Origin: a virus | Taxonomy: Duplodnaviria > Heunggongvirae > Uroviricota > Caudoviricetes | Direction: 5' to 3' (one strand) | IMG/VR virus record: IMGVR_UViG_2698536369_000029 | Coordinates: 1-16,353 of that record | Length of the DNA stretch: 16,353 bases | Shown here: piece by piece, positions 1,315 through 16,353 of the stretch | Layout of the letters: each line of letters opens with the position of its first letter | Position numbering within the stretch: the stretch's first letter is position 1 | Made by a program: the position numbers and the translations under genes | The notes under the pieces: model-generated | The model's database searches: none | What the model was told of the DNA's origin: nothing | Seen by the model: the letters and a program-made list of their open reading frames with translations, nothing else

Positions 1315-1369
1315 TGATACCTCCAGACGCCCAAGAGCGATACGAGCTTACATACTTCATGGCATTAAA

Positions 1370-1606: not shown

Positions 1607-1614
1607 GCATTACC

Positions 1615-1761: not shown

Positions 1762-1764
1762 TCT

Positions 1765-2007: not shown

Positions 2008-2038
2008 TTTTTCTCCTGCTCTCTGAATAGTGAGAACT

Positions 2039-2410: not shown

Positions 2411-2450
2411 CTGCTTTTCCCTTAGCCCGGCGGTCTGCCGGGCGTATAAG

Positions 2451-3278
2451 TTATTTAACCTGGATAAATGGTGTACTGGCACCGCTGGTCATGTATTGCG
2501 GCAGTGTGCCGTTCCATTTATTAATGGCTTCCAGTTCCATAACACCAGGGTTCTGGCGCAGAGCTTCACCGCGTAAACGAATAGCATCGGCTTCGGCCTG
2601 GGCTTTTGTGCGAATGGCGTCAGCCTGTCCGGCAGCTTCCGCGCGCAACATGTTGGCTTCCGCTTCGCGCTGTTTTACTTCCTGTTCGCGTTGCAGGGTC
2701 TTCTGGTTTGCCGTGACTTTGGCATTAATGCTGTCGATAACGGTTGGCGGGTACTCCGGCTTACCCACATATGAGAGACTCATTACCTGAATACCGATGG
2801 GCGTCATTTCTGCCTGAATGTCTTTAAGGGCTGCATCCAGCAGCTCAGACTTGCCGCCGTCGATAAATTTGTCAGTGGTCATTTTGCTGGCCAGTCGGTT
2901 GAGTGCGTCGGCGATCTTCTGGCGCAGGTCAGTGTCGGTAATGTCATCCACGCCTTTGCGGTAGGTCTGAAACACCGTGGTAACTTTGGATGGATCAACT
3001 TTGTAGGCCACACCAATGTGATAGCCGATGGTTGTACCGTCACTCATCTGGAAACTGAACGGTTCATCGTAGGTCTTCATTTGCTTGAAGGTGGGGAAGA
3101 TGTAAACTTCAGTATTCCAGCCAGTCCAGTAGCGACCAACACCGACCACCTCACCGACGCCTTTGTCGTCGCCCAGTTTATTTACCTTGATGCCAACATT
3201 ACCTGGTTCAACGCGATCGCAACCGACAAGGCCAATAGTCGGCAGAACAATGGCTAAAGCAAAAATAATTTTTTTCAT
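2451..3278 (-). CDS. SPFH/band-7 (prohibitin-like) domain lipoprotein
   Basis: 275 aa. N-terminal signal peptide with lipobox LVGC (MKKIIFALAIVLPTIGLVGC), an SPFH-like core, and a C-terminal Ala/Glu/Arg/Gln-rich coiled-coil tail. AAGGA Shine-Dalgarno 6 nt upstream. Confidence 0.8.
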   Translation of the reverse strand: MKKIIFALAIVLPTIGLVGCDRVEPGNVGIKVNKLGDDKGVGEVVGVGRYWTGWNTEVYIFPTFKQMKTYDEPFSFQMSDGTTIGYHIGVAYKVDPSKVTTVFQTYRKGVDDITDTDLRQKIADALNRLASKMTTDKFIDGGKSELLDAALKDIQAEMTPIGIQVMSLSYVGKPEYPPTVIDSINAKVTANQKTLQREQEVKQREAEANMLRAEAAGQADAIRTKAQAEADAIRLRGEALRQNPGVMELEAINKWNGTLPQYMTSGASTPFIQVK

Positions 3279-3463
3279 CTTTTATCCTTAGTGAAAGAAA
3301 GACCTTTGTAAATGGCATAAATGCAGGGCGGGGTCAGAAACGCCAGTGCAAAGCCAGAAATAACAGCTATCGTATCCTTCATGGATATAAGGAACGGAAC
3401 AAGTAATCCGTAAATACATGCGATAATTGCCAGTAAAATTACTATTGTGAAATACAGTCTCAT
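3275..3463 (-). CDS. Small two-helix membrane protein, translationally coupled to the SPFH gene
   Basis: 62-aa highly hydrophobic ORF whose stop overlaps the SPFH start codon by 4 nt. No strong Shine-Dalgarno. Candidate NfeD-like partner, by position only. Confidence 0.4.
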   Translation of the reverse strand: MRLYFTIVILLAIIACIYGLLVPFLISMKDTIAVISGFALAFLTPPCIYAIYKGLSFTKDKR

Positions 3464-3487
3464 TGGTCTGTGGTATCCCGATATTTT

Positions 3488-3594
3488 TAACCGACTGACA
3501 GCACAATAAAGAGAATAATGATTTCAGTTAGTGTCAGTACTGTGGCAAGGATTAAAATCAGTTTTACTCTGTTTAATTCACGGTTGCTTTTCAT
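3488..3594 (-). CDS. Possible 35-aa hydrophobic peptide
   Basis: Hand-translated minus-strand ORF MKSNRELNRVKLILILATVLTLTEIIILFIVLSVG. No recognisable RBS, so it is weakly supported. Confidence 0.2.
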
Positions 3595-3640
3595 ACAAAC
3601 GGTTAGTAAAAAACTGGAAGAATTATTTTCTTCTTAATAT

Positions 3641-4222
3641 TTAATGTGTCACTGGCGCTTCTGGCATACCATGAGTATTCAGGTCGTTAATCATTTCATC
3701 CAGAAGGAGTTCAAGCCCTTCGCGCCCCATAGCAGAAACAATGAAACCATTATCAGGATCTGCGATGAGCATATTTTGATAGAGAAACAGAACTCGCCCC
3801 ATGCCTTCAGCTTCGCCATATTTTTCAATAAATCCCCATTCGACATGGTTTTGCAGGGCAATGCGAAGTGATCCTGGGTATATACTCATGCAACCATGCT
3901 TCCCCTTATAAATAACAGCGCGATCTGTAGTTCCGTTATCGTTAGGGATATCAATGGTGCCGTTCTTGCCTTCTTCTTCATTTATAAACGTCGTCACATA
4001 CAGCCATCGCCATTGAGCAATCTTCATATCGACTGAAAATCGTCCCAGTAATCCGGCATCATCGGCTTCAGCAATACATTGCATAATTCTTAAACCGTGA
4101 GAATTTGGATAATCGTATTCACCATCATTAAGCCGCTGTACGGCCTCAACATAATCAATGGTTGTATTGCCAATTTTTATGCCATGTGGCGTAACTTCTG
4201 GTCGGAACTCTGAATGATTCAT
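3641..4222 (-). CDS. Hypothetical protein (193 aa), function unknown
   Basis: Start at internal ATG (MNHSEF...) with AAGGAG Shine-Dalgarno 8 nt upstream. The first ATG of the track ORF (4279) lies inside the upstream gene. Confidence 0.6.
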   Translation of the reverse strand: MNHSEFRPEVTPHGIKIGNTTIDYVEAVQRLNDGEYDYPNSHGLRIMQCIAEADDAGLLGRFSVDMKIAQWRWLYVTTFINEEEGKNGTIDIPNDNGTTDRAVIYKGKHGCMSIYPGSLRIALQNHVEWGFIEKYGEAEGMGRVLFLYQNMLIADPDNGFIVSAMGREGLELLLDEMINDLNTHGMPEAPVTH

Positions 4223-4407
4223 AATGTTTGCTCCTTTGCTGGTGGAATAATCGTGTAGCCAGCTCTTTTTGCCATCCACAGAAATGTATCCATGCAGCCA
4301 ACGAATTCATTATCCAACAGATGTTTTGAGTAAATTACTTCACCATTTTCAATGGTTAGCAACACTCTAACTTTTTTATGTGTTATGTTCTGTTGTTTTT
4401 CTTTCAT
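4219..4407 (-). CDS. Small hypothetical protein (62 aa), translationally coupled to the 3641..4222 gene
   Basis: GGGAGA Shine-Dalgarno 7 nt upstream. Its stop overlaps the downstream start (ATGA overlap). Confidence 0.45.
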   Translation of the reverse strand: MKEKQQNITHKKVRVLLTIENGEVIYSKHLLDNEFVGCMDTFLWMAKRAGYTIIPPAKEQTL

Positions 4408-4603
4408 TTATTTATCTCCCATATGCTTTGCGCAAATACAGGTTGGCTATATGAAGATAAGAATCTCCATGTTGTGCAATGAGGCAGGCAGTTTTATACG
4501 ATGCCTTATGTTTCAGGAAGGTCATAACATAATCTCCTGCGAATAAAGATTGCAACAATCCCCGGCGATAAAACCGTAATAAACATTCAGGGGATATTTA
4601 TTG

Positions 4604-4969
4604 TTATTGCGCTAATTCTTTTTCGGCAGCAGATTTTGCATATTCACATGCAAAATTCAGAATTTCGCTGCCAAGTGTTTTTGTTTCGTGATTACTGGAC
4701 ATATGTAATACCTGTGTTGCATGCAATAAATGATAAACATTTACCGCAAATGAGTCCGGCTCCAGACAAATGCCTTCATAATCATCTTGTTGTGAGGTTG
4801 TTTCTGTCATTGCTCCTGAAGTGCATGCGAGCCTGTTTTTGACAATTCTCTTTCCTCTAATCACTATATCGGCAACATCTATTGCCTTTACAACCTCCGG
4901 GAGAAGTTCCGGGTTTGTATAATCAAAGTCATCAACATGGAGAACAGTTATGTTTTCGAACTTTTTCAT
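4604..4969 (-). CDS. Hypothetical protein (121 aa)
   Basis: ORF with AGGA Shine-Dalgarno about 4 nt upstream of the ATG. No recognisable domain. Confidence 0.5.
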   Translation of the reverse strand: MKKFENITVLHVDDFDYTNPELLPEVVKAIDVADIVIRGKRIVKNRLACTSGAMTETTSQQDDYEGICLEPDSFAVNVYHLLHATQVLHMSSNHETKTLGSEILNFACEYAKSAAEKELAQ

Positions 4970-5097
4970 GGCTTCCTCAGCTGACTTATATGTTCTGCTA
5001 TATAGCGAGTCTCAGAAGTGTTTTCATATTGAGACTGTTTCCGCAATGATTGATAAAAATGTTCGCATGTACCTTGAGGGGCGAAGCGGCGATTATG

Positions 5098-5646
5098 TCA
5101 CCATTGGTATTGGTTCTTCCGTAGAAGAGCTTCGCGAGATAAGGAGCAAACTTGTTGAGATGCGTCATGGTGTTGCTGCTCCTCACTTTTTGGTTGCTCC
5201 GGAGGAGTAACCTCGCCAGTTAACAGCCACATCGGATCGCAGCCAAGAATATTTGCCAGTGGGATAAGCATACTGATGGTTGGTTCATACTCTCCGCTCT
5301 CCCACTGAATGATGATTTCTTCATCGAGATCGAGCAGCCTGGCGAGTTCGGCGGTTGTTAAGCCGCAGGCTTCGCGTTGGGTGCGAAGGTTAACCAGCCA
5401 GCTTTTAGGAAAGGATTGTTTTTGTTGTGCAGGAGAAGCCGCAGATAGAGCATATTCATGGATAAATTCCATTACCTCAATGCCCAATTCCTTTGAGCGA
5501 GCACAATCCAGAAGATGGAATGTGCGTACAGCACTTAGCAAATTTGCAATATTTAATGCAAAGGAATCAAGTTCTAAGCCTTCAAGCGTAACACAGCCGC
5601 AGTTGATAAAATTAGTTGTTTCTGGACTTGCTTTTAGTGTCTTCAT
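5098..5646 (-). CDS. HTH (XRE-type) DNA-binding protein with the HTH in the C-terminal half; first gene of the leftward early operon
   Basis: 182 aa. The segment CGLTTAELARLLDLDEEIIIQWESGEYEPTISMLIPLANILGCDPMWLL is a typical XRE helix-turn-helix, preceded by an unrelated roughly 80-aa N-terminal domain. GGTGG Shine-Dalgarno-like upstream. Confidence 0.55.
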   Translation of the reverse strand: MKTLKASPETTNFINCGCVTLEGLELDSFALNIANLLSAVRTFHLLDCARSKELGIEVMEFIHEYALSAASPAQQKQSFPKSWLVNLRTQREACGLTTAELARLLDLDEEIIIQWESGEYEPTISMLIPLANILGCDPMWLLTGEVTPPEQPKSEEQQHHDASQQVCSLSREALLRKNQYQW

Positions 5647-5699
5647 ATACCCACCAACAATTTTAAATTGAATTTAATCAAGTTATAATTGATGGTGCG

Positions 5700-5728
5700 A
5701 TATTATGCTTTGAGAAATAGGCTGTCAA
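5700..5728 (-). promoter_or_regulatory. Candidate leftward early promoter (PL-like)
   Basis: On the minus strand: TTGACA (plus 5723-5728), 17-bp spacer, TAATAT (plus 5700-5705), about 50 nt upstream of the 5646 start. Flanked by ATCAAGT/ATTGAT motifs related to those in the cI-cro intergenic region. Confidence 0.45.
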
Positions 5729-5758
5729 GAAAAAATTGATATCGTGTGTTTTAGGCAG

Positions 5759-5780
5759 AAAAAAACGGGCAAAGCCCGTT
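5759..5780 (-). terminator. Rho-independent terminator downstream of the cI-like gene
   Basis: Plus-strand AAAAAAACGGGCAAAGCCCGTT; on the minus strand this is a GC hairpin (CGGGC/GCCCG, 3-nt loop) followed by a run of 7 U, immediately after the repressor stop at 5792. Confidence 0.55.
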
Positions 5781-5791
5781 AAAATCAAAGA

Positions 5792-6481
5792 CTAACCAAA
5801 TCTGTTTATATTGAATGGTACTGATGAGATCACTTTAGACTGGATATAAAGCAGAGCTAACCCCTCTTTTTCGATGCTCCATGGTTGATAATTGGGGTTA
5901 TCAGATAACACCATGATTTTGCTTCCAATTTTTTGAAGTCTTTTCACGTAGCATTCTCCATCAAAACAAAATGCATAAATGCCATCGCCATCAAAATAAG
6001 TTACTGTCTTATCAAGAAAAAGAAGGTCGCCAGGTGAGATTGTGGGAGCCATACTGTCTCCTCTGGCGTTACCTATTTCTATATTTTTGAATGCCCGATT
6101 TCCAACAAGGCGTCGGGCATATTCAGGATCAAGTTCTATTGAGCGCACTACATCTATCAAGTCACCACGGACATGAGTTCCATCACCGCAACTAAACTCA
6201 ACATCAAGGACATTAAACACGACGCTATCTGTTCTTGTCTGGTGTTTCTCTTGCGAGGAAAAGGTTGGTGAGGAGTCTTCACCTAAGAACCAGGATTGTG
6301 GATAACCGCTAATCTCGGATAAATGCGCGAGCTTATCACTCCGTGGAAATGTTTTTCCTGTTGTCCAGTACTGCACTGATTGCGCACTCACACCTAACTT
6401 GCGGGCCAGTTGAGCCTGAGTCCATCCTTTTGCTTTCAGCATCGCGGCTATTCGATTTTCCGTGTTTTTGACGTTCTTCAT
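5792..6481 (-). CDS. cI: CI-like phage repressor (N-terminal HTH plus C-terminal S24/LexA-type autopeptidase)
   Basis: N-terminal XRE HTH (WTQAQLARKLGVSAQSVQYW) and C-terminal S24 domain with the catalytic Ser in GDSMAPT and a downstream Lys (YVKRL). Start set at ATG 6481 with AGGA Shine-Dalgarno; the track ORF starts two codons earlier at a TTG. Confidence 0.85.
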   Translation of the reverse strand: MKNVKNTENRIAAMLKAKGWTQAQLARKLGVSAQSVQYWTTGKTFPRSDKLAHLSEISGYPQSWFLGEDSSPTFSSQEKHQTRTDSVVFNVLDVEFSCGDGTHVRGDLIDVVRSIELDPEYARRLVGNRAFKNIEIGNARGDSMAPTISPGDLLFLDKTVTYFDGDGIYAFCFDGECYVKRLQKIGSKIMVLSDNPNYQPWSIEKEGLALLYIQSKVISSVPFNINRFG

Positions 6482-6614
6482 GACCAAATCCTGTGGGTTT
6501 CTTTACAAGGATAAATCTTTACTTGATTTTAGTGTATTCGATCCTTTTGCAACTTGCATGTTAATTTAAACTTGATGTATTCTTGATTTATAAAGTTAAT
6601 GTTGGTGCTTTATT
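6482..6614. promoter_or_regulatory. Divergent cI/cro control region (OR-like) with repeated operator-like motifs
   Basis: 133-bp AT-rich intergenic region between divergent repressor and cro genes. ACTTGAT-like motifs recur at 6521, 6552 (ACTTGCA), 6570 and 6581 (TCTTGAT). Confidence 0.5.
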
Positions 6615-6887
6615 ATGAAAGGAAATGATTACGACAAACTTCGTGCATTAATTGCGCAAAATGCCATAGCGCGAAATCTTGGTGTGACGCCGCAAGCGGT
6701 GAATCAGTGGTTTTCAAAAAACACAATTCCTGCTCGTTTCGTTTTACGCGTATGTGAAGTAGTTGCATGGAAGGTCACGCCACATGGCTTAAGGCCAGAT
6801 CTTTATCCTCACCCTGAAGATGGAATTCCTGATTCGTTACGCAAAATTTCAAATCCAAGCTTAGCGCACACAGAGGACGAGAAGTGA
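6615..6887 (+). CDS. cro: Cro/YdaS-like HTH regulator
   Basis: 90 aa. NLGVTPQAVNQWFSKNTIP...LRPDLY matches the remembered YdaS/Cro-type pattern (LGVSPQAVNQW...RVP...LRPDIF). Divergent from cI. Confidence 0.75.
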   Translation: MKGNDYDKLRALIAQNAIARNLGVTPQAVNQWFSKNTIPARFVLRVCEVVAWKVTPHGLRPDLYPHPEDGIPDSLRKISNPSLAHTEDEK

Positions 6888-6927
6888 TGGTGGTGATATG
6901 AGCGAAAAAATAACTATTAAATACGAT

Positions 6928-6950
6928 GGGGCAACCATTTCGATTGCCCC
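6928..6950. terminator. Hairpin between convergent genes (possible bidirectional terminator)
   Basis: GGGGCAA-(9 nt)-TTGCCCC inverted repeat, A-rich on its plus-strand 5' side (T-rich after the hairpin on the minus strand). Lies between the cro stop (6887) and the stop of the minus-strand gene (6958). Confidence 0.3.
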
Positions 6951-6957
6951 AATCACA

Positions 6958-7251
6958 TTAGCGTTCGCTGAGAAGTTGTTGGTAAGCCTTAAAGGATGCG
7001 AACTGCATTCTACCTTCGGCATTGATTCCAATGCCTTCGCTTGTACACCAGGTGATGAACTCGGCTGTATCCGCTTCAACTTTAATAACTCGTTGCCCGC
7101 TTCTTTCGACACGCTTAATCAATTTTTCAGCGTCGTGTTTCCACTCGGTGTAACTGTCGGAGAGCACATCAGCATCAGTAAAAATATTTTTGAGCTCATG
7201 ATACTGAATCGCATCGCGAAACCAGAATAAACCAACGGCCTGAACTTTCAT
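6958..7251 (-). CDS. Hypothetical protein (97 aa) convergent with cro
   Basis: Very strong AAGGAGG Shine-Dalgarno 7 nt upstream of the ATG at 7251. Charged, protein-like composition. Preferred over the fully overlapping plus-strand ORF 6898..7230. Confidence 0.5.
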   Translation of the reverse strand: MKVQAVGLFWFRDAIQYHELKNIFTDADVLSDSYTEWKHDAEKLIKRVERSGQRVIKVEADTAEFITWCTSEGIGINAEGRMQFASFKAYQQLLSER

Positions 7252-7364
7252 GTCGAACCTCCTTTGGTTCTTTTGTTTATAGGGATCAAAAGGATAACTG
7301 AAGGAAGGTTCGGCACCAATAAGTACGAATGTGCGGAATCTTAAAAGAATTTATCCGTAAGGAG

Positions 7365-8078
7365 ATGGCAGTGAACACCGCAATTTTTAACGACAAAGCA
7401 TCCATGACCAGCGTTGAGATCGCAGAGCTGGTGGGTAGTCAGCACTCAGATGTTAAACGTAGTATCGAACGCCTGGTTGCTAAAAACATCATCCGGAAAC
7501 CGCCAATGGCTGTTTCCGAGAAAATCAATAACTTAGGTTTTAAAGTTCAATATGAGCATTACCTGTTTGAAGGAGAACAAGGTAAGCGCGACAGCATCAT
7601 TGTCGTCGCACAGCTCTGCCCTGAATTCACTGCTCGCCTGGTAGATCGCTGGCGTGAACTGGAAGAACAGATCCGTAAGCCAATGAGCGAAATTGAAATG
7701 GTTGCTGCGATGGCTCTTGAAGCTGTTCGCCAGCAGAAACGGATCACTCAGGTGGAAGAAAAAGTCAGCCATGTTGCCGAAACAGTTGAGCAAATCAAAA
7801 AGGGCACCATTCGTGAGGGCTATGCCGGATATCGCCAACTGAAAGCAAAAACCGGTTTGTCAGATGATAAATGCCGCAATCTGGTGAACGCCTATCAAAT
7901 TCCTACAGACACCCATGAGTTCATGACGCCGGACGGATTGTTGTCACGTCGCGCAATTGTTGCTGTGGAACCGTTTATGGCTGCTTTTTATCGGGTTATG
8001 GAGGAAGCAGAACCGCGAGGGACTCGCTGGTATCACCCGAAAATGGGGTTATTTCAGGTTATTGGTTGGCAGCGGTGA
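7365..8078 (+). CDS. rha: Rha-family phage regulatory protein
   Basis: MTSVEIAELVGSQHSDVKRSIERL followed by ...FEGEQGKRDSIIVVAQLCPEFTARLVDRW matches the remembered Rha family signature. Start is ATG 7365 directly after TAAGGAG, or GTG 7371 with better spacing. Confidence 0.75.
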   Translation: MAVNTAIFNDKASMTSVEIAELVGSQHSDVKRSIERLVAKNIIRKPPMAVSEKINNLGFKVQYEHYLFEGEQGKRDSIIVVAQLCPEFTARLVDRWRELEEQIRKPMSEIEMVAAMALEAVRQQKRITQVEEKVSHVAETVEQIKKGTIREGYAGYRQLKAKTGLSDDKCRNLVNAYQIPTDTHEFMTPDGLLSRRAIVAVEPFMAAFYRVMEEAEPRGTRWYHPKMGLFQVIGWQR

Positions 8079-8102
8079 AAAAAAGCCGGGTAGTGACCCG
8101 GC
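8078..8102 (-). terminator. Hairpin with flanking homopolymer run, terminator-like on the minus strand
   Basis: Plus-strand AAAAAAAGCCGGGTAGTGACCCGGC: a 7-bp GC stem with 4-nt loop; on the minus strand the hairpin is followed by T7. It sits immediately after the Rha stop codon. Confidence 0.4.
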
Positions 8103-8190
8103 TCGCTCAACGTTGGTAAAGGCAACTTCACTGAGAAGTAAGCCAGTAACATCCAAGAACATTTGCGTTAGTAAAAATACCAGTAAGCAT

Positions 8191-8853
8191 ATGAATGTTT
8201 CAAGCCTAAATATTGATTCTGCAATTTCGGGACGTTACACTGTTCCTGCACCTTATAAAGCGGGTGCCGGGATTGGCGTCCTGGAAATGTTATCGGCGAT
8301 ATATGACGCGCCAGCGTCTTTTTTATCGTCTGCGTCTGCGCACACCCAAATTATGGTGGGCTGGACGGGGGCACCGAAAGGTGCGCCGGTTTCCGATAAC
8401 GCCGGTTACGCCAACCCCGTTCAGTTCACCACCAGCGAAATTGGCGTTTCCGGTGGTGAAGGTAATTCACTGTTATCGGAGGCTGCCATCATGGCTACAG
8501 TCCCAACTTCCCCATACCTGAAAATCGAAGTCGTCAACGGCAAGGCCGTTATTTTCTCCCTGCATGTTGCCTGCCACTTTAAGCGCATGCACCAGAACAT
8601 CGTCGACAAAATCGAGTATCTGAACTGCTCACGTGAATTCTTCTCCCGTAATTTCATTCCGGGTACTTACCACGTGTATGGCGATTCCCTGCGTGGTTAT
8701 TACATCACCCTTGATGGTCTGATGATGCTTCAGCTTGGGTTAAGTCTGCGCACAATGCGGTACTACGAGAGCTGTATTGAAGCATTTCATGAGGCCGAAA
8801 CCAGCCTGACTCACACTGCTTTCAGCCGTAATCAATGGGAGGTGCGCCCATGA
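8191..8853 (+). CDS. Hypothetical phage protein (220 aa; alternative start at 8491 gives 120 aa)
   Basis: Long ORF with E. coli-like codons throughout. ATG 8191 has only a weak RBS, whereas the internal ATG 8491 has GGAGG 8 nt upstream. A terminator-like hairpin (8305-8324) lies inside the longer version, so the true start is uncertain. Confidence 0.45.
   Translation: MNVSSLNIDSAISGRYTVPAPYKAGAGIGVLEMLSAIYDAPASFLSSASAHTQIMVGWTGAPKGAPVSDNAGYANPVQFTTSEIGVSGGEGNSLLSEAAIMATVPTSPYLKIEVVNGKAVIFSLHVACHFKRMHQNIVDKIEYLNCSREFFSRNFIPGTYHVYGDSLRGYYITLDGLMMLQLGLSLRTMRYYESCIEAFHEAETSLTHTAFSRNQWEVRP
8305..8324 (+). terminator. Terminator-like hairpin plus T-run (GACGC-GCCA-GCGTC-TTTTTT)
   Basis: 5-bp GC stem, 4-nt loop, 6 T on the plus strand. 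It lies within the N-terminal part of the 8191 ORF, so it is either an early-operon terminator (if the gene starts at 8491) or a coincidental coding hairpin. Confidence 0.3.
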
Positions 8854-9074
8854 TTCGCCGCGTCGTTAATTCCCTGTATCACCGATACAACCGTTGCCCC
8901 CGTGTGGGGCAGTGGTTTGCCACCAGCAACGGCCATGTTCTGCGGGTTTGCCTGGTCAGTACCGAAAGCCAGAAAGTCGTGTGTGAATTACTGGGGCGTA
9001 ACTACACCATCAGTTACCCACTGGTGGCGTTTCAGTCCGGAAAAATGTTTAAACGCCTGGGAGGCGCCGTGTGA
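8850..9074 (+). CDS. Small hypothetical protein (74 aa)
   Basis: ATG 8850 with GGAGGTG Shine-Dalgarno; ATGA overlap with the upstream stop, and its own stop overlaps the downstream GTG start. Confidence 0.45.
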   Translation: MIRRVVNSLYHRYNRCPRVGQWFATSNGHVLRVCLVSTESQKVVCELLGRNYTISYPLVAFQSGKMFKRLGGAV

Positions 9075-10063
9075 GTCGTTACGCTCCAACACCGGAAGTT
9101 ATGGCTATTGGTCAAATTAATATTTCCGGCAATGTCACACCAGCGAACTGGTGGAAACATATTCGGCTACCCAGTGGTCGTCCGGATGCGACCGCTATCG
9201 CCCTGCTCTCAGAGATCGTTTACTGGTACCGCCCGACAGAAGTCAGGGATGAACATACCGGGGCTTTGCTGGGATATCGCAAGCGTTTTCAGGGGGACAA
9301 GCTGCAAAGAAGTTATCAGGCGTTTGCTGAGCAGTTTGGTTTCGGGAAAAGGGAAACCGCGGATGCGTTGAAGCGCCTTCGTGATGCCGGGTTTATTTCC
9401 CTGGATTTACGCACTGTGGAAATGCTCGACGGTGTGAAATGCAGCAATATTTTGTTTGTCGGGATCAACCCACAGGCAATTGCTGCCATTACTACTCCTT
9501 CTTCTGTTTCGCCAGAAAGTAACAGCAATAACGCAATCAGCGATACAGCTATTACGTTAAAACGGAACACCCCCCAACGTCATAACGGAACAGGGGATAC
9601 GCCGAATGTTGATACAAATACAGAGATTACTACAGAGATTACAACGGAGACTAAAAACACTATTGGCGCATCCGCTGACGCGTCTGCACCAGCGCGTTCT
9701 GCCCGACAGGAATATTCACCGGAATTTGAACAGGCCTGGCAGGAATATCCCAAACGTGCTGGTGGTAATTCCAAGTCGGCAGCCTTCAAAGCCTGGAAAG
9801 CCCGTCTCAGGGAGGGAATAAAACCGGAGACCATGCTTGATGGTGTGAGACGTTATGCCGCTTGGGTACGTGCTACAGGAAATACCGGCACACAGTTCGT
9901 GAAGCAGGCTGCGACGTTCTTTGGACCCGATCGTCACTTCGAAGACTTCTGGCAACAGCCAGCCGCTCCCGGAGGTGGGCGACAGCGACAGGTCGATGTC
10001 CTGGCTGGCCTGGGAGCCATGTCTGACAAATTCGGTAAATCCAGTGACAAATTGACATTCTGA
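9071..10063 (+). CDS. Replication initiator/organiser protein (lambda O-like by position)
   Basis: 330 aa. GTG start with GGGAGG Shine-Dalgarno 8 nt upstream. Two domains separated by a low-complexity linker (NGTGDTPNVDTNTEITTEITTETKNT) whose DNA carries iteron-like repeats. Sits directly upstream of the DnaC-like and DnaB-like genes. Confidence 0.6.
   Translation: MSRYAPTPEVMAIGQINISGNVTPANWWKHIRLPSGRPDATAIALLSEIVYWYRPTEVRDEHTGALLGYRKRFQGDKLQRSYQAFAEQFGFGKRETADALKRLRDAGFISLDLRTVEMLDGVKCSNILFVGINPQAIAAITTPSSVSPESNSNNAISDTAITLKRNTPQRHNGTGDTPNVDTNTEITTEITTETKNTIGASADASAPARSARQEYSPEFEQAWQEYPKRAGGNSKSAAFKAWKARLREGIKPETMLDGVRRYAAWVRATGNTGTQFVKQAATFFGPDRHFEDFWQQPAAPGGGRQRQVDVLAGLGAMSDKFGKSSDKLTF
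9596..9654. repeat. Iteron-like direct repeats inside the initiator gene (candidate ori)
   Basis: ACAGAGATTAC occurs twice with a 12-bp period (9620-9630 and 9632-9642), followed by the degenerate copy AACGGAGACTAA. GATAC/GATTAC cores also at about 9596 and 9611. Confidence 0.4.
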
Positions 10064-10073
10064 GGTGACAGCG

Positions 10074-10952
10074 ATGATGACGTTTAACCTGCGTGAACAA
10101 CAAAAAAGACTACAGGCGCGAATGGATGAGTTACGGGCAGAGATTGCATTTGCTCAGAAGGGCGAAAAGCCATGGCCTTATCGTTCCTGCCTGATGCGTG
10201 AAGGTCGCGGATATTGCGAAAAACACGGTAAATACCATACGCATATACTGGTGTGGAGCGATCGTAATGGCGAGGACAGAGAAAAAATTTCATGCTGCCC
10301 TGACTGCTTGATCGCTGAGGCCAACGATTTGACCATGGAATTGTCGTCCATCAAGGCGGAAGAGCTGACTGATAACGCCGGAATTGCCCTGCGTTTTCGG
10401 GACTGCGAGTTTGATAATTATCTGGAGGTTAATCCTGACGCAGCCAGAAATCTTGCAGCCTGTCGCCGCTATGCGGAGAACTGGCCAGATATGCTGGAGA
10501 ACGGCACCAGTCTTGTTATGACTGGCAGTTGCGGTACCGGGAAAAATCATCTGGCGGTATCAATGGCAAAACACATCATCCGTAACTATCTGGCCAGTGT
10601 GGAGATCACCGACGTGATGCGTCTTACCCGTGCTGTGAAAAACTGCTGGCGGAATGACAGCGAAAAAACAGCGGATGAAGTTATTGAGCATTATGCGTCA
10701 ATGGATTTGCTGATCATCGACGAAGTTGGTGTTCAGTTTGGCAGCGCGGCTGAAATGGCTATTTTGCAGGAAATTATCAATGCCCGGTACGAAAGTATTC
10801 TGCCCACCATCCTGATTAGCAACCTTTCACCGGATGAGTTGTGGGCGTTCATCAGCCCCCGCATTGCCGACAGGATCACAGACGGGGGGCGCAACTGGTT
10901 GTCGTTCAACTGGCCCAGCTACCGTTCTCGTATCAGAGGTGTGGCTGCATGA
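10074..10952 (+). CDS. dnaC: DnaC-like helicase loader (AAA+ ATPase)
   Basis: Walker A GSCGTGKNHLA, Walker B LLIIDEVG, and C-terminal NWPSYRSR, which closely matches the E. coli DnaC motif NWDSYRSR. ATG 10074 with GAGGTGA Shine-Dalgarno. N-terminal Cys/His cluster (CEKHGKYHTH...CCPDC). Confidence 0.85.
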   Translation: MMTFNLREQQKRLQARMDELRAEIAFAQKGEKPWPYRSCLMREGRGYCEKHGKYHTHILVWSDRNGEDREKISCCPDCLIAEANDLTMELSSIKAEELTDNAGIALRFRDCEFDNYLEVNPDAARNLAACRRYAENWPDMLENGTSLVMTGSCGTGKNHLAVSMAKHIIRNYLASVEITDVMRLTRAVKNCWRNDSEKTADEVIEHYASMDLLIIDEVGVQFGSAAEMAILQEIINARYESILPTILISNLSPDELWAFISPRIADRITDGGRNWLSFNWPSYRSRIRGVAA

Positions 10953-12340
10953 CAATACCAGTCTGGCGTAACGATGACCTGGAAGGCGCTGTTATTGGCG
11001 CGTTCTTTCTGCGTGGGGCAGATCCTGAAGTGATGGATATTCTGGCCACACTGCCAGCGGACGTTTTTTCTGTACGAGCGTATCGGGATATCTACACAGG
11101 CATCTGCAGACAGGCCCGTGTTTCAGGTGTGATTGATCCTGTGCTGTTGTGTAATGAGATGCCGGAACTTGCTCCGGTGATTACTGATACCGGGCGTAAA
11201 ACCTGGGTGAAGTCTTCACTGGAGCACTATGTTACGGCGTTGCGTCGCAATGCTGCATTGCGTGATGCAGAAAAAACACTTAATGAGGCGTTGCAGAAAT
11301 TACGTGATGCGCATACCTGTGAAGCAGCTGAAGATGCTCTGAAGGATGCGCAGAACATGATGGCCTCATTGTCGACGGAAAAGGGCGTTATTCAGCCGGT
11401 ACATATTGGTGATGTGCTTCCGGAAGTGGTTGAGCGTGTTGAATGCCGGAATCAGGGACTGGAAAAATCCAGAACGTTGATGACCGGTATTGATGAACTG
11501 GACGCAAAAACGGGCGGCATGGAGCCTGGCGACCTGGTATTTATTGCTGCACGTCCTTCGATGGGCAAAACCGAACTGGCGCTGGATATCATCGACAAGG
11601 TGACTGAGCAGGGGCATGGTGTTCTTCTGTTCACAATGGAAATGGCGAACATCCAGATTGGTGAACGCATGGTATCTGCGGCTGGAGGAATGCCGGTATC
11701 ACGCCTGAAATCTGTCACTCACTTTGAAGACGAAGACTGGGCACGTTTCTCACAAGGAGTGGGGCGGATGACCGGGCGCAATATCTGGATGGTGGACCAG
11801 GCGAACCTGACCATTGATGAGATATGCGCAACAACGAAGCATCACCTGATTAAACATCCGGAAACGGCGCTGGTGGTGGTTGATTATCTCGGGCTGATAA
11901 AAACCCGAACCACGGGGCGTCATGACCTTGCCGTGGGTGAAATCTCAAAGGGGCTTAAAGGCCTGGCAAAATCCGGTGGTTTTCCGTTGATTGCGCTGAG
12001 CCAGCTTTCCCGTGGTGTGGAGTCCAGGCCCAATAAACGCCCTATGAACTCAGACCTGAAAAATTCCGGAGAAATAGAGGCGGATGCAGACATCATTCTG
12101 ATGCTTTACAGGGATGAAGTGTACAACCCGGATACGCAGGCCAGAGGCATTGCAGAAATCAATATCACGAAACAACGTAACGGTTCTCTGGGGACGATTT
12201 ACCGGCGTTTTTATAACGGACATTTTCTGCCCGTAGACCAGGAAAGCGCACAGATTCTTTCCACCCCAATGCAGCAGCCCCAGCCGCGCAGATACAGCAA
12301 TAAGCGAACCGACAGCAGTAAGATGGAGCGTTTCTTTTGA
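10949..12340 (+). CDS. dnaB: DnaB-family replicative DNA helicase
   Basis: 463 aa from ATG 10949 (ATGA overlap with the loader stop). Walker A GDLVFIAARPSMGKTELALDI closely matches E. coli DnaB (GDLIIVAARPSMGKT), with a RecA-like C-terminal domain. Confidence 0.85.
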   Translation: MTIPVWRNDDLEGAVIGAFFLRGADPEVMDILATLPADVFSVRAYRDIYTGICRQARVSGVIDPVLLCNEMPELAPVITDTGRKTWVKSSLEHYVTALRRNAALRDAEKTLNEALQKLRDAHTCEAAEDALKDAQNMMASLSTEKGVIQPVHIGDVLPEVVERVECRNQGLEKSRTLMTGIDELDAKTGGMEPGDLVFIAARPSMGKTELALDIIDKVTEQGHGVLLFTMEMANIQIGERMVSAAGGMPVSRLKSVTHFEDEDWARFSQGVGRMTGRNIWMVDQANLTIDEICATTKHHLIKHPETALVVVDYLGLIKTRTTGRHDLAVGEISKGLKGLAKSGGFPLIALSQLSRGVESRPNKRPMNSDLKNSGEIEADADIILMLYRDEVYNPDTQARGIAEINITKQRNGSLGTIYRRFYNGHFLPVDQESAQILSTPMQQPQPRRYSNKRTDSSKMERFF

Positions 12341-12594
12341 ACAACCAGACCATGACTTTTACGCCTGAACAATTACGTAAACAGGCACAGGAAATGTTAC
12401 GACAGGCGGAACAACTGGAAAAGACAGGCGTAACAAAAGATGCCATTCGTAAGGATATGGTGCCAGCGCTCAGGGAACTGATGCAGGCGAAACACCGCGC
12501 ACAAAAAGCAGTGGATGAGCTGGTGGATTGTGTGGCAGAGCTGGAAACCAAAGTTGGAAAGTTCGAAAAACTGGTGCAGGAGGTACTGCGCTGA
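12337..12594 (+). CDS. Small coiled-coil protein (about 80-85 aa), function unknown
   Basis: Charged, helical-looking sequence (EQLRKQAQEMLRQAEQLEK...). Start is TTG 12337 (GGAG 8 nt upstream) or ATG 12352. Confidence 0.45.
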   Translation: MNNQTMTFTPEQLRKQAQEMLRQAEQLEKTGVTKDAIRKDMVPALRELMQAKHRAQKAVDELVDCVAELETKVGKFEKLVQEVLR

Positions 12595-12962
12595 TGCGTG
12601 ATATGTACGAAGTTTTAGATCGTTGGGGGGCCTGGGCTGCAGCAGATAACAGTGGTGTGGACTGGCAGCCGATAGCAGCAGGCTTCAAGGGGCTTTTACC
12701 ACACGGTAAAAAGTCACGTCTCCAGTGTGATGATGACGAAGGTATCATGATAGACGGTTGTGTGGCTCGGTTGCGAAAGTATAAACCCGAAGAGTATGAG
12801 TTGATCATTGCTCACTTTGTTATTGGTATCTCATTACGCGCTATTGCTAAAAAACGGAAATGTTCAGATGGAACAATACGGAAAGAGATGCAAACAGCAA
12901 TGGGGTTTATTGATGGCTGCTTGTCATTTTTCATTTACTACAATGACTTAAGTTCTATGTAA
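12594..12962 (+). CDS. Q: Late-gene antiterminator Q-like protein
   Basis: 122 aa from ATG 12594 (TGATG overlap, AGGAGG upstream). Cys-containing segment QCDDDEGIMIDGCVARLRKYKPEEYELIIAHFVIGISLRAIAKKRKCSDGTIRKE resembles the remembered phage antitermination Q family. Position after the replication genes fits. Confidence 0.6.
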   Translation: MRDMYEVLDRWGAWAAADNSGVDWQPIAAGFKGLLPHGKKSRLQCDDDEGIMIDGCVARLRKYKPEEYELIIAHFVIGISLRAIAKKRKCSDGTIRKEMQTAMGFIDGCLSFFIYYNDLSSM

Positions 12963-12964
12963 AA

Positions 12965-12999
12965 TCGTTCTACTTTCCCAACTTTTATGTGTATATAAT
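12965..12999 (+). promoter_or_regulatory. Candidate sigma-70 promoter upstream of the methyltransferase (possibly the Q-dependent late promoter)
   Basis: Perfect TATAAT at 12994-12999, about 27 nt upstream of the GTG start; the -35 region is poor (TACTTT/TTTCCC). Confidence 0.3.
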
Positions 13000-13025
13000 A
13001 CCAAGATAAAGTAACGGAGAATCTT

Positions 13026-14066
13026 GTGAACATTCAGGCAGTAGACATTTTTTGTGGTGCGGGGGGCTTAACTTTTGGGCTAAAAAAAGCCGGGATTGAG
13101 GTTTCTCATGGTATTGATATTGATGAATCCTGCCGTTTTGCTATTGAGAGCAATAATCCTTTAACGCAGTTCATTAATCGGTCAGTTACAGAACTGCAAT
13201 CCTGCGATGTGTCTGCTATGTTCAAGGAAGGAAATATTAGATTGCTTGCTGGATGTGCTCCTTGCCAACCGTTTTCCAAGTATCGTAATCCAAATAGCCG
13301 TAAAGACGATACAAAGTGGCGTTTGTTATATGAGTTTCAAAGGCTTGTAAGTGATGTCATGCCAGAGCTTGTGACGATGGAGAATGTTCCTCAACTTAGA
13401 AACCATAAGGTTTTTGAAGGGTTTGTTAGTGCATTAAAGACTCTTGGATATCATTTGTGGTACGACGTTGTAAGATGTTCTGAGTATGGCTTACCTCAAA
13501 ATAGACGTAGATTAATTCTAATTGGTTCCCAATTGGGGCCGATCAGCCTTGATCAAAAAAAAGTTAGCCGTAAAGTTACTGTTAAGGATGCTATTGGTAG
13601 GTTGCCAAAAGTAGGGGCAGGTGAGAAGCTGGAAAGCGATCCCTTGCATCGTTCGCCTAAATTGATGGATATCAATCTTAAACGAATCATGCATTCTTTA
13701 CCTGGTGGTACGTGGGATGACTGGCCTGAAGAAATTAGAGCAGACTGTCATAAAAAGAATTCAGGTGCTACCTATAAAAGCGTTTATGGACGGATGGTTT
13801 GGGACGATACTAGCCCTACGATAACTACCCAGTGTTATGGATATGGAAATGGACGATTTGGCCATCCTGAGCAAAATCGCGCCATAACTTTGCGTGAAGC
13901 TGCGATTTTGCAATCCTTTCCAATGGATTATAAATTCCTTGACAAGGAGACGCCTTTTTCATTCCAAAAATTGGGGACAATGATTGGAAATGCTGTTCCC
14001 CCTATAATTGGTCAGATAATAGGGGAAACATTTATCAGACATGTTGAGGGGATAAATACCCGTTAG
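13026..14066 (+). CDS. DNA (cytosine-5)-methyltransferase
   Basis: GTG start with GGAG 6 nt upstream. Canonical C5-MTase motifs: motif I DIFCGAGG (AdoMet binding), motif IV PCQPFS (catalytic Cys), motif VI ENV, motif VIII QNRRR, and a C-terminal NAVPP-type motif. Confidence 0.85.
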   Translation: MNIQAVDIFCGAGGLTFGLKKAGIEVSHGIDIDESCRFAIESNNPLTQFINRSVTELQSCDVSAMFKEGNIRLLAGCAPCQPFSKYRNPNSRKDDTKWRLLYEFQRLVSDVMPELVTMENVPQLRNHKVFEGFVSALKTLGYHLWYDVVRCSEYGLPQNRRRLILIGSQLGPISLDQKKVSRKVTVKDAIGRLPKVGAGEKLESDPLHRSPKLMDINLKRIMHSLPGGTWDDWPEEIRADCHKKNSGATYKSVYGRMVWDDTSPTITTQCYGYGNGRFGHPEQNRAITLREAAILQSFPMDYKFLDKETPFSFQKLGTMIGNAVPPIIGQIIGETFIRHVEGINTR

Positions 14067-14724
14067 AGGTAATATAATTTTCTGTTGAGTTGATTAATAA
14101 ACGCAAATATAGATCAATTCTTTCTGACCTCGATTTGACTTCTTCTAAAGGGTCTATTTGACCTTTTTTAGAAAAGCTGGTACTTCCATGTGCCAGCTCA
14201 TTTCTGATATCTTTAAGTAAATCTAAGTCAACACCATTTCTACACTCTGGTGAGTTTGCAACAGTTATTCCGTAAGCTTGTGTTATTTTGTGCAATACAG
14301 ACTTGCAAACATTACCATTGAATTCTTTACGTATGTTTAATGAGGCTGAAATGATCCTTTTAGATATATCGGAACCAATTTTTTGATAAAGAGATTTTCC
14401 CGATTCATTATCTGAAATGATACGGTGCAAGATATTTACTTGGAATTTCTCCCTGAGTGATGCGTAATTTACTTCATTATCTTGCAAATGGTCATAAATT
14501 GACTCAATGCATCCTCTGGCAGTGTTTTCAACCTGATTGTACAGCATCATGTGCACGGATGATTTTAAAATGTTAACCCTAAGGGTATTTGATTCTATTT
14601 CATCTTTATGCGTTTGCTGATCTAACTGCTGAGTCTGAGCCTCTAAAGATGACGCAAGAGAAAGCAATTCCATAATATCTCTTGCTCTTTCTTCGTATTC
14701 ATCTCTTAAATCAATCAAACTCAT
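14035..14724 (-). CDS. HEPN-like protein (putative nuclease), second gene of the DUF262-HEPN operon
   Basis: 229 aa, largely helical-looking, with an R-x4-H motif (RNELAHG) near the C-terminus as expected for HEPN. ATG lies 2 nt after the DUF262 stop, with AGGAA Shine-Dalgarno inside the upstream gene. Its 3' end overlaps the convergent MTase by about 32 bp. The specific family (MAE_28990-like) is recalled, not verified. Confidence 0.65.
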   Translation of the reverse strand: MSLIDLRDEYEERARDIMELLSLASSLEAQTQQLDQQTHKDEIESNTLRVNILKSSVHMMLYNQVENTARGCIESIYDHLQDNEVNYASLREKFQVNILHRIISDNESGKSLYQKIGSDISKRIISASLNIRKEFNGNVCKSVLHKITQAYGITVANSPECRNGVDLDLLKDIRNELAHGSTSFSKKGQIDPLEEVKSRSERIDLYLRLLINSTENYITSNGYLSPQHV

Positions 14725-14726
14725 AG

Positions 14727-15884
14727 TTACATTCCTAATAATTTATCTTTGACATAAAATATTCTGTTTTTGAGTTGGCTGGTGTTGTTGGCACTATCAG
14801 CAGTAACTATGGTTTCAAATTCCTCCCCAAACAGCCAGTCTCCTACAGGAATAACCGGAGCCTGTAGATGTGGATTGGCTTTTAAGGCAAGAGCAGTTCC
14901 CACTGCTATGGCTTCGTATCTAGCACGGGGGGTGGTTTTGCTTGTTGGTGTCTTTTTAAACCCCATAGGGAAATGAGCATCTACAAAAGCAAGCATGCTT
15001 TCAAAATCATGTTTAAATTTGTCAACATCTTGTTGTGTGACCCTTTCGGCCTGAACATTAAGATAATTGTCAATAAAAGGAGCGACATAACCCTTATAAT
15101 TTTCTAAATCATTTAAGTATGCAAAAAATCTCAAAACTAACTCACGATGATCGCCATTCGAACGCTTCCGGTCTGATAATGGAGCTAGACTAGCGAAAAG
15201 TGGATTTGTTGAGCAAGGAGTCACAACATCCCTATAGAAAATTGAAGTGGCCGCATCTGAACCATGTCTAACCTCCATCGCTTCCAGTCTCTTAACACCT
15301 GAATTTATTCTTTCGAATAAATCTCTTCTATGTTGCTCCTCAACATCACCTTTCAATTCAATAAATCTTAGTGATGCCCTTAAAAATCGCCTCTGGCGGC
15401 TAGCCAAAAGATCTGAAAATTTGAAGCCCTCTAAACTTTTGAGTTCTTTTAAGTCTTTCAATTCAAACTGATTGTTCCAAAAGTAGTAAATTGAGCGAAT
15501 CCTTTGTGAACCGTCAATAATTTCTGCACGACCATCCAACTCAGGATCTTCATTAAATACGTCGGAGATGTAGAGGTACGGGATTGGAAAATCTAATAAT
15601 ATACTTTCGATGAATCGAGAGGCTGTTTTGATATCCCATTTGTAATCGCGTTGATAATCAGGAATAAAAAGTTCGTTTTTGTCAGTTTCAAGATTATTGC
15701 CATACTTTTGTACAATTAATTCAACGGTCCATTCACGTACGTTGTATCCAATATTTCTCTGAGCAAGCCTAATCTCGTTGTCGGCAGAAGTGACCAAGGC
15801 TGCAATTTCAGCTTTTTTTCTATTTTTCGCGTTTTCATCTTGAATCTGAGCAAGCTCTTCTTTGAGTTCTTTGAGTGTGGTCAT
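14727..15884 (-). CDS. DUF262 (ParB/Srx-like, GmrSD N-terminal type) domain protein
   Basis: 385 aa. Hallmark DUF262 motifs FIPDYQRDYKW and IIDGSQR (DGQQR-type). No recognisable HNH/DUF1524 nuclease domain in the C-terminal half. AAAGGAA Shine-Dalgarno 7-8 nt upstream. Confidence 0.8.
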   Translation of the reverse strand: MTTLKELKEELAQIQDENAKNRKKAEIAALVTSADNEIRLAQRNIGYNVREWTVELIVQKYGNNLETDKNELFIPDYQRDYKWDIKTASRFIESILLDFPIPYLYISDVFNEDPELDGRAEIIDGSQRIRSIYYFWNNQFELKDLKELKSLEGFKFSDLLASRQRRFLRASLRFIELKGDVEEQHRRDLFERINSGVKRLEAMEVRHGSDAATSIFYRDVVTPCSTNPLFASLAPLSDRKRSNGDHRELVLRFFAYLNDLENYKGYVAPFIDNYLNVQAERVTQQDVDKFKHDFESMLAFVDAHFPMGFKKTPTSKTTPRARYEAIAVGTALALKANPHLQAPVIPVGDWLFGEEFETIVTADSANNTSQLKNRIFYVKDKLLGM

Positions 15885-15906
15885 ATCACTGTTCCTTTAA
15901 TTGGAG

Positions 15907-15956
15907 TTGGAAATAGATTGTAAGAAAACTATAACGCGTACGCAAAAAATATTATA
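15907..15956. promoter_or_regulatory. Divergent promoter region (candidate plus-strand promoter; candidate minus-strand -10 for the DUF262 operon)
   Basis: Plus strand: TTGGAA (15907-15912), 17-bp spacer, TATAAC (15930-15935), followed by a second -10-like TATTAT at 15950-15955. Minus strand: perfect TATAAT (complement of 15951-15956) about 65 nt upstream of the DUF262 ATG, with a weak -35. Confidence 0.3.
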
Positions 15957-15994
15957 TCGTGTTAAGAGTGGTTACTACGCCACACAGCTTAAAC

Positions 15995-16014
15995 CCGCCG
16001 CCAGGCGGTTTTTT
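15995..16014 (+). terminator. Rho-independent terminator (plus strand)
   Basis: CCGCC-GCCA-GGCGG hairpin followed immediately by TTTTTT. On the minus strand it is preceded by the A-run and lacks a U-tract, so it is oriented for plus-strand transcripts. Confidence 0.5.
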
Positions 16015-16137
16015 GTGTCCGAAAAACGGCGCAGTACGTTAAACGTGCTGGTGGTTGCGAATACCGGTCTTTCAGCTTGCTGGCTTTTCAGACAAGAGTT
16101 ATTGGTGTGTCACGTTAACCAGAAAAGGGAAAAAGAC

Positions 16138-16242
16138 ATGCTAAAACAGCAGGATATGACCGAAACTGCCAGAGTGGTGTTTAATGAATTGAGCGTCACC
16201 GAACCGGCGACTGTCGGGGAAATTGCGCAGAATACTTACTGA
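16138..16242 (+). pseudogene. 5' fragment of a gene apparently truncated by the IS insertion
   Basis: ATG 16138 with AAGGGA Shine-Dalgarno 7 nt upstream; encodes MLKQQDMTETARVVFNELSVTEPATVGEIAQNTY and stops at a TGA formed by the first three bases of the IS terminal repeat (16240-16242). Confidence 0.35.
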
Positions 16243-16353
16243 ACCGCCCCGGGAATCCTGGAGACTAAACTCCCTGAGAAAGAGGTAAACAGAATGACTA
16301 AAAATACTCGTTTTTCCCCCGAAGTCCGTCAGAGGGCGATTCGTATGGTTCTG
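16240..16353 (+). mobile_element. Left end of an IS3-family insertion sequence (IS629/IS1203-like), continuing beyond the window
   Basis: Terminal sequence TGAACCGCCCCGGGAATCCTGGAGACTAAACTCCCTGAGAAAGAGGTAAACAGA followed by an orfA start. It begins with the TG typical of IS3-family ends and matches my recollection of the IS629 left end. Confidence 0.7.
16294..16353 (+). CDS. IS3-family transposase OrfA, N-terminal 20 codons (partial, runs off window)
   Basis: Translation MTKNTRFSPEVRQRAIRMVL matches the remembered N-terminus of IS629/IS1203 OrfA (MTKNTRFSPEVRQRAVRMVLE...). AGAGG Shine-Dalgarno upstream. Confidence 0.7.
   Translation, partial: MTKNTRFSPEVRQRAIRMVL

Follow-up and report, generated by a model that had tools for sequence, protein, structure and literature searches.

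A predicted restriction-modification-like anti-phage cassette of a C5 methyltransferase, a DUF262 protein and a HEPN protein in a lambdoid prophage of Escherichia coli

The 16,353-nucleotide (nt) stretch of prophage DNA analyzed here (IMG/VR virus record IMGVR_UViG_2698536369_000029, positions 1 to 16,353; hereafter the window) carries three genes, which we call M, A, and B, downstream of a Q gene (12594-12962; PF06530, E=3e-47). A sequence-only reading of this DNA had described a two-gene operon, and both the open reading frame (ORF) list and the sequence agree with it on two minus-strand ORFs 2 nt apart. The first, A (14727-15884), encodes a 385-amino-acid (aa) protein with a ParB-type DUF262 domain and a C-terminal helical (ParBDB-like) domain, a predicted nucleoside triphosphate (NTP)-dependent DNA sensor. 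The second, B (14035-14724), is identified from the ORF list and Pfam as a 229-aa stand-alone HEPN protein of the MAE_28990 family, a predicted RNase effector; the junction from the A stop to the B start reads 'atg taa ct atg'. Overlooked in that reading was M (13026-14066, plus strand), which starts with GTG and encodes a C5 DNA cytosine methyltransferase of 346 aa (PF00145, TIGR00675). M is convergent with B, and their 3' ends overlap by 32 nt. On mobile elements the unit is therefore a three-gene cassette, of ~3 kb in the window, and not a gene pair, and with M as the third partner its likely logic shifts from a plain abortive infection (Abi) pair to a restriction-modification (R-M)-like system. 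We consider it plausible from the sequence that the locus is a conserved three-gene R-M-like anti-phage cassette carried as prophage cargo. The visual impression that the pair is AT-rich holds true on counting: GC content is 0.355-0.41 over 12601-16200, against 0.49-0.53 over the replication genes (7501-12600), and M lies within the same low-GC block as A and B.

Protein A has one significant Pfam match, PF03235 GmrSD_N (E=1.2e-25, 91 bits; cut-off 33), which confirms the earlier DUF262 call, and both of the motifs quoted for it, ELFIPDYQRDYKW and IIDGSQR, are present. Three motifs are conserved across 79 sequences of the A family: QRxxxW (Q78 and W83, with R79 nearly invariant), DGxQR (D124, G125, Q127, R128), and FxxxN (F190, N194). 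As the sequence-only reading had held, A lacks a DUF1524/HNH nuclease by Pfam; the C-terminal half is helical, and no match to a nuclease fold was found in it. In GmrSD, BrxU, and SspE, DUF262 serves as an NTPase that senses the state of DNA and governs a nuclease domain distinct from it. Among PADLOC models, A matches NsnA (PDLC03877; E=9.8e-46, 155 bits) and PD-T4-2_A (PDLC04027; E=4.6e-27, 93 bits, residues 72-336). The PD-T4-2_A model is matched by 79 of 79 A-family members, with NsnA scoring higher in every case, and relatives of A reach up to 206 bits on NsnA, covering positions 28-377 of the 385 in that model. Against the PADLOC 'REase_II' model PDLC03418, the window A gives no match at E<=0.1; 60 of the 79 family proteins match it weakly, over the DUF262 part only (best E=2.3e-12), so that automated tools may annotate many such loci as type II R-M.

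Protein B matches PF18737 HEPN_MAE_28990 (E=3.8e-16, 60 bits; cut-off 27) and, also above the curated cut-off, PF18735 HEPN_RiboL-PSP (E=6.7e-8). Its structural model shows an alpha-helical HEPN fold, which together with the Rx4-6H motif places B in the HEPN superfamily. B contains the motif DIRNELAH, and the R-N-x-L-A-H site is invariant in 84 homologues (down to 21% identity), as are Y62, E66, G137, N138, G180, S183, and F184, the site itself contributing R174, N175, L177, A178, and H179; both the HEPN call and its R-x4-H motif thus stand. An exhaustive profile search recovered 1,274 clusters at 50% identity, almost all of them stand-alone proteins of 205-260 aa. The well-characterized active Rx4-6H HEPN enzymes (PrrC, RloC, RnlA, Csm6, Cas13, HepT) are known to cleave RNA, and by analogy with them we infer that B does so too.

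Protein M matches PF00145 over residues 4-336 (E=1.5e-53) and, above the cut-off, TIGR00675 dcm (E=9.5e-35). Its translation contains readable methyltransferase motifs I (DIFCGAGG), IV with the catalytic Cys (GCAPCQPFS), VI (ENV), and VIII (QNRRR). The family is fairly homogeneous, with a median pairwise identity of 53% across phyla, and is best conserved in the C-terminal part of the target recognition domain (TRD) and motifs IX-X. Two routes to a recognition sequence were tried and abandoned: relatives in the Protein Data Bank were generic (DNMT1, M.HaeIII, 3g7u) and allowed no target to be inferred, and the TRD, moderately to strongly conserved across the family, yielded no motif. In a methylome paper on ST131, no 5-methylcytosine (m5C) was detected, and the m5C enzymes predicted for EC958 were Dcm and M2.EcoMI only.

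To follow the three genes across genomes we used ORF and hidden Markov model analysis of 80 genomic loci, seeded on the B alignment and taken from one genome per species. Most are cyanobacterial, including Microcystis, and the others come from Proteobacteria, Verrucomicrobia, Bacteroidota, Planctomycetota, and Actinobacteria. In 80/80, B is immediately preceded on its own strand by an A-family gene, a result that settles in its favor the co-localization the sequence-only reading had proposed as a check on itself. A and B are spaced from a few bases of overlap up to ~16 nt apart in most loci, wider spacings being an artefact of over-extended or truncated ORF calls. A C5 methylase is adjacent in 52 of the 80, six loci being too short to judge, and occurs in three arrangements (32 A>B<M, 7 A>B>M, and 13 M>A>B). 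Phage contigs of IMG/VR, seeded on A, gave another 80 loci, with all three genes present in 76 of the 76 that could be evaluated. Of 5,426 complete E. coli genomes, 107 contain the M segment and 107 the A-B segment, and both split 73/34 by identity. Distance matrices are correlated as well (rho 0.88 for A versus B, and 0.55-0.58 for M versus A or B, permutation p=0.001). Neighborhoods inspected by hand (B homologues of 41-69% identity, A homologues of 58-84%) had the order A>B<M in every case: a Pseudoalteromonas Tn7-like element, Yersinia, S. bongori, three Klebsiella prophages, a Vibrio integrative element, and a Pseudomonas island beside McrBC. Among GenBank phages, the P2-like coliphage P24B2 and nine Moraxella phages carry the triad. 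Because A, B, and M are linked across genomic loci, phage contigs, and E. coli genomes, with correlated distances, the predicted functional unit on mobile elements is one of three genes, and its A-B core can persist without an adjacent M.

Several neighboring or related arrangements were seen along the way (numbers beginning with L denote our loci). Next to the triad in L004, L010, and L011 lie HigB/helix-turn-helix genes (S. bongori) and HicA/HicB, a BsuBI/PstI-type R-M system, or a reverse transcriptase (Klebsiella prophages). The Klebsiella P2-like phage ST16-OXA48phi5.4 (L098 2360-4263) carries DUF262 plus a RiboL-PSP-type HEPN protein and no methylase. E. coli phage vB_EcoM-689R6 (L097 2450-4161) carries, beside an integrase at icd, DUF262 with a 216-aa protein that has no Pfam or PADLOC match, and again no methylase.

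The cassette is located after Q and before the lysis genes of a lambdoid prophage at yecE, in keeping with the cargo position between Q and the late genes assigned to it earlier. A lambdoid prophage with 99.8% identity to this region lies beside yecE/yecN in 73 complete E. coli genomes, O25b:H4-ST131 strains among them; its genes run in the order Q, M, (B<-A), a small ORF, an N6-type methyltransferase (pseudogene), a large ORF, and then lysis and head genes. A second allele occupies the same slot of a different lambdoid prophage in 34 further E. coli genomes, with A-B 84.6% and M 90.6% identical. In phiP27 (L096 1240-2469), the slot between Q and the small ORF is occupied by a different gene, for a 409-aa T5orf172/MUG113 (GIY-YIG-like) protein, a domain also known from defence genes. 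From ~15932-15955 onward, the window again matches the post-Q region of phiP27 and Shiga toxin (Stx) phages; on alignment, the start of this match and a nearby hairpin mark the end of the inserted cargo. Given the different gene in phiP27 and the resumption of the post-Q match, M, A, and B are exchangeable cargo in a hotspot downstream of Q. The occurrence of the phiP27 domain in defence genes suggests that this slot serves lambdoid and Stx phages as a hotspot for defence.

The sequence-only reading had left it open whether the pairing of DUF262 with HEPN had been named, and in this it overstated the novelty: DUF262 plus HEPN is PD-T4-2, and a neighborhood of ParB, methylase, and MAE_28990 was listed in 2013 (PMC3710099). 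PD-T4-2 of strain ECOR65 ('DUF262, HEPN'; Vassallo 2022) was shown to act against T4 in two ways, by cloning it on a plasmid and by deleting it from the strain that naturally carries it (PMC9519451). We compared it with the window through profile scores and published HHpred tables. Both loci lie in E. coli accessory DNA and have a DUF262 gene followed by a gene for a small stand-alone HEPN protein, whose best Pfam/HHpred families are PF18735 and PF18737 in both. PD-T4-2, however, is ~1.54 kb long and was cloned without a methyltransferase, whereas the window has M alongside; B is also ~60 residues longer than the PD-T4-2 HEPN protein, with a conserved insert that contains the invariant G137-N138. 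The PD-T4-2_A profile is matched by A, but the PD-T4-2_B model (PDLC04028) gives no match to the window B at E<=0.1 and matches 2 of 84 B-family members at E<=0.01 (best 2.4e-4), and the locus is not a methylase-free gene pair. Because the B profile is not matched and a methylase is present, the window locus is not PD-T4-2 itself. As possible stand-ins for PD-T4-2 we tried vB_EcoM-689R6, ST16-OXA48phi5.4, and P24B2; PD-T4-2_B matched none of them, and in no case did the PD-T4-2_A score exceed that on NsnA. The most fitting place for the cassette is among the DUF262-HEPN (PD-T4-2-like) systems, as a methylase-linked variant that was anticipated bioinformatically in 2013.

NsnA, the higher-scoring of the two models, comes from Menshen (NsnABC; Millman 2022). 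A is a near full-length homologue of NsnA, with the same ParB-DUF262 plus helical ParBDB architecture, the same three motifs, and the same fold. Menshen further comprises the ABC-ATPase NsnB and NsnC; the window cassette has no ATPase gene, and in 80/80 loci it is B that follows A. With NsnB and NsnC absent, the window locus is not Menshen. A methyltransferase is a conserved partner of the window-type A-B pair but only an occasional neighbor of Menshen. The Menshen paper (PMC12065111) proposes that NsnA senses DNA and that most of the effectors are RNases, and it notes that methylase-linked cases may 'target non-modified genomes'. PD-lambda-5, from a prophage of ECOR7 (Vassallo 2022), couples a ParB/HEPN fusion to a methyltransferase and was described by its authors as a compacted 'RM+Abi' system. 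It resembles the window cassette in being prophage-borne and in combining ParB-like and HEPN domains with a DNA methyltransferase, but its ParB and HEPN (DUF4145-type) parts are fused, and the ParB part is PF02195, not DUF262. No PD-Lambda-5 model was among the PADLOC matches of A or B, and the system is analogous rather than orthologous to the window cassette.

GmrSD, BrxU, and SspE, which are type IV and PT-sensing enzymes, carry a DUF262-DUF1524 nuclease, whereas A has no DUF1524/HNH domain and its nuclease is expected to come in trans from HEPN and to act on RNA; without DUF1524, the locus is not GmrSD. Type IV systems, moreover, are without a modification enzyme, and the window cassette carries its own. 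PrrC-EcoPrrI is like the cassette in that a HEPN RNase is coupled genetically and functionally to R-M and an NTPase module regulates HEPN; it differs in having an ABC ATPase fused to HEPN and a complete type Ic R-M system with its own nuclease, and the relationship is one of HEPN superfamily only. The neighborhood of the triad already appears as an entry in a table of Anantharaman et al. 2013 (Biol Direct 8:15, PMC3710099), which groups a ParB nuclease, a DNA methylase, and a MAE_28990 HEPN protein; our B-seeded scan recovered the triad in a Microcystis aeruginosa metagenome-assembled genome (L036). That survey devotes a single table line to it and adds a generic PrrC-like hypothesis, with no quantification, phage context, or experiment, and it calls the ParB protein a nuclease, where current DUF262 data favor an NTPase sensor. 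In the literature searched, no paper was found in which the three-gene form of DUF262, HEPN, and methylase is named or tested, and nothing beyond the systems cited here came up.

We propose that M marks self, A senses unmarked DNA, and B cleaves RNA, and we put the probability of this mechanism as a whole at roughly 55%. M would methylate cytosines at target sites of host and prophage DNA and so provide the mark of self. A, through its ParB-type DUF262 NTPase and helical DNA-binding domain, would sense DNA and act as a nucleotide-driven switch that has no nuclease domain of its own, while B, translationally coupled to A, would be the effector as a HEPN ribonuclease. On meeting DNA without the M mark, A would bind or hydrolyze NTP and release or activate B; B would then cut RNA, stopping phage gene expression and probably causing growth arrest or death of the infected cell. 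The proposal builds on the domains and catalytic motifs of A, B, and M, their folds, and their strict genetic linkage, all observed directly; within it, A would read methylation state and would control B. Precedents for it are PD-T4-2, PD-lambda-5, and the sensor role proposed for NsnA. More broadly, the cassette may exemplify a distinct class of R-M-like immunity, a methylation-gated, RNA-targeting abortive system with a ParB-type NTPase sensor lacking a DNase and with a HEPN RNase output in place of DNA cleavage, spread widely over phages, transposons, and islands in bacteria ranging from Enterobacteria to cyanobacteria; we offer this reading tentatively and think it somewhat more apt to fail than to hold.

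A number of observations weigh against the proposed mechanism. The characterized DUF262 sensors (GmrSD, BrxU, SspE) respond to modified, not unmodified, DNA. PD-T4-2 is active and non-toxic in K-12 without a cognate methylase (PMC9519451). The structural model of B has a predicted local distance difference test (pLDDT) score of 69, with residues 85-160 below 50, and deserves only moderate confidence. Furthermore, 22 of the 74 evaluable B-seeded loci have an intact A-B pair without an adjacent C5 methylase, which means that A-B is not obligatorily dependent on a neighboring M. All 22 are cyanobacterial, mostly from one clade, and lie among housekeeping genes (MetH, ClpB, AcnB, CobN); an alternative methylase was sought there and rejected, the neighbors being those housekeeping genes. 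In Peduovirus P24B2 (L094 2021-3041), M is frameshifted near 2361-2365 and A-B is intact; unless the frameshift is a sequencing error, which it may be, the A-B pair there tolerates loss of M. Separately, we note that A and B of Aphanizomenon flos-aquae FACHB-1287 (L033) share 94.8% identity with their Dolichospermum circinale counterparts (L060); the latter have an adjacent methylase, the former none within 6 kb, and this looks like recent loss or relocation of M.

The same facts can be arranged in other ways. The locus could be a type II-like R-M system with an Abi back-up, in which A is the restriction DNase for unmethylated DNA, M its cognate methylase, and B a PrrC-like RNase held by A or M and freed if restriction is blocked. 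A convergent, 3'-overlapping M is typical of type II R-M gene pairs, many relatives of A weakly resemble the REase_II model over DUF262, and the 2013 survey (PMC3710099) both lists 'ParB nuclease and DNA methylase' and suggests that HEPNs linked to R-M are set free in the manner of PrrC. We nevertheless judge this arrangement unlikely: the window A falls outside the REase_II matches, and no nuclease fold was found in its C-terminal half. The DUF262 motifs (DGxQR and others) bind or hydrolyze nucleotide in BrxU and GmrSD, where DNA is cut by a separate HNH domain that A lacks, and the 80/80 linkage of B to A, with rho 0.88, fits a core effector better than an accessory one.

If A instead behaved as its GmrSD, BrxU, and SspE relatives do, it would detect modified phage DNA, for example the hydroxymethylcytosine (hmC) or glucosyl-hmC of T-even phages, and trigger B in a type IV-like manner, leaving M a separate task such as shielding phage DNA from host restriction. 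Protection by methylase-less PD-T4-2 against T4 and by Menshen against T2/T4/T6 would suit such a system, as would the A-B pairs without adjacent M in the cyanobacterial clade and the Klebsiella P2-like phage. It would leave unexplained, however, why M accompanies A-B in 76/76 phage triads and in three gene orders across phyla, with equal counts and splits in E. coli and correlated divergence, and a sensor of cytosine modification sharing a cell with a cytosine methylase would run a risk of self-targeting; we regard it as distinctly improbable. Less probable still, to the point that we give it very little credence, is a toxin-antitoxin addiction module that stabilizes the prophage, with B as the toxin, A and/or M neutralizing it, and no primary role in defence. 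R-M-like modules are known as addiction elements, and analogous ATPase-HEPN dyads were proposed as toxin-antitoxin systems in the 2013 survey (PMC3710099). Yet the triad sits in defence-type contexts (beside McrBC, in the P2 hotspot, as Tn7 cargo, in the moron slot downstream of Q), PD-T4-2, of homologous architecture, is a demonstrated defence system, and A, a 385-aa two-domain protein of DNA-sensor type, is unlike typical small antitoxins.

If the proposed mechanism of M, A, and B is correct, a ParB-type nucleotide switch would connect methylation-based discrimination of self from non-self to an effector that cleaves RNA, linking classical R-M logic to HEPN abortive infection and to the Menshen/GmrSD sensor module. 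Since pandemic E. coli of the ST131 type and many Klebsiella prophages carry it, the cassette may affect host range in phage therapy. The PADLOC 2.0 models tested do not detect it as a system, and defence censuses probably overlook it or mislabel it as type II R-M for this reason.

The flanks of the genes contain candidate expression signals. M is preceded by a ribosome-binding site GGAG (13016-13019, plus strand) and by the Q-M intergenic region (12963-13025, plus strand), where a TATAAT box read from the sequence (12994-12999) is a candidate promoter; a consensus scan gave no support for a promoter in this region, and M would on our reading have its own promoter there. Upstream of A-B, a conserved region (15885-15975, minus strand) with invariant blocks emerges from an alignment of six enterobacterial prophage copies (two E. 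coli, two Klebsiella, S. bongori, and Y. mollaretii). Our own reading of the alignment places in it a putative sigma-70 promoter with a -35 TTGCGT at 15945-15940, a 17-nt spacer, and a -10 TACAAT at 15922-15917, together with an alternative -10 TATAAT at 15956-15951; a ribosome-binding site AAAGGA for A follows at 15898-15893, all on the minus strand. A consensus promoter scan returned no convincing minus-strand promoter for A-B, and it is cross-species conservation that points to promoter function here. In the cassette, an Rfam scan found no regulatory RNA and an inverted-repeat scan no inverted repeats of at least 12 nt.

Overlapping the putative -35 of A-B is a palindrome, GCGTACGCGT (15943-15934, minus strand), that shows no change among the prophage copies of E. 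coli, Klebsiella, and Yersinia and is degraded in S. bongori. We rejected it as a universal M target or operator, as it occurs in enterobacterial prophage copies only and is absent upstream of A in non-enteric triads; its role may be that of an operator or of a site sensitive to methylation. At the outer edge of the cassette lies the hairpin mentioned above, a GC-rich, terminator-like structure with a T-run (CCGCCGCCAGGCGG and TTTTTTGTGT; 15995-16015, plus strand), kept at this position upstream of A in 5/6 enteric copies and degraded in S. bongori. The plus strand at 15907-16015 reads TTGGAA, a 17-nt spacer, and TATAAC, and then, ~60 nt on, this hairpin and T-run. By our own reading it resembles a lambdoid pR'/tR' late-promoter unit; if it is one, Q would be parted from its target promoter by the 3-kb cassette.

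Two further features of the window lie outside the cassette. Its end (16243-16353, plus strand) is the left end of an IS3-family element, reading TGAACCGCCCCGGGAATCC..., with the start of transposase orfA at 16295 (MTKNTRFSPEVRQRAIRMVL); the element resembles IS629/IS1203. It disrupts the small ORF (16138 onward) that is intact in the 107 related E. coli genomes, whose identity with the window ends at 16239. In the early region, near a gene annotated as ash family in a related genome, Rfam places isrK (8248-8324, plus strand, 63.7 bits) and a C4 antisense RNA (8349-8436, plus strand, 82.8 bits) in tandem, which is an antisense immunity element of P1/P7 type.

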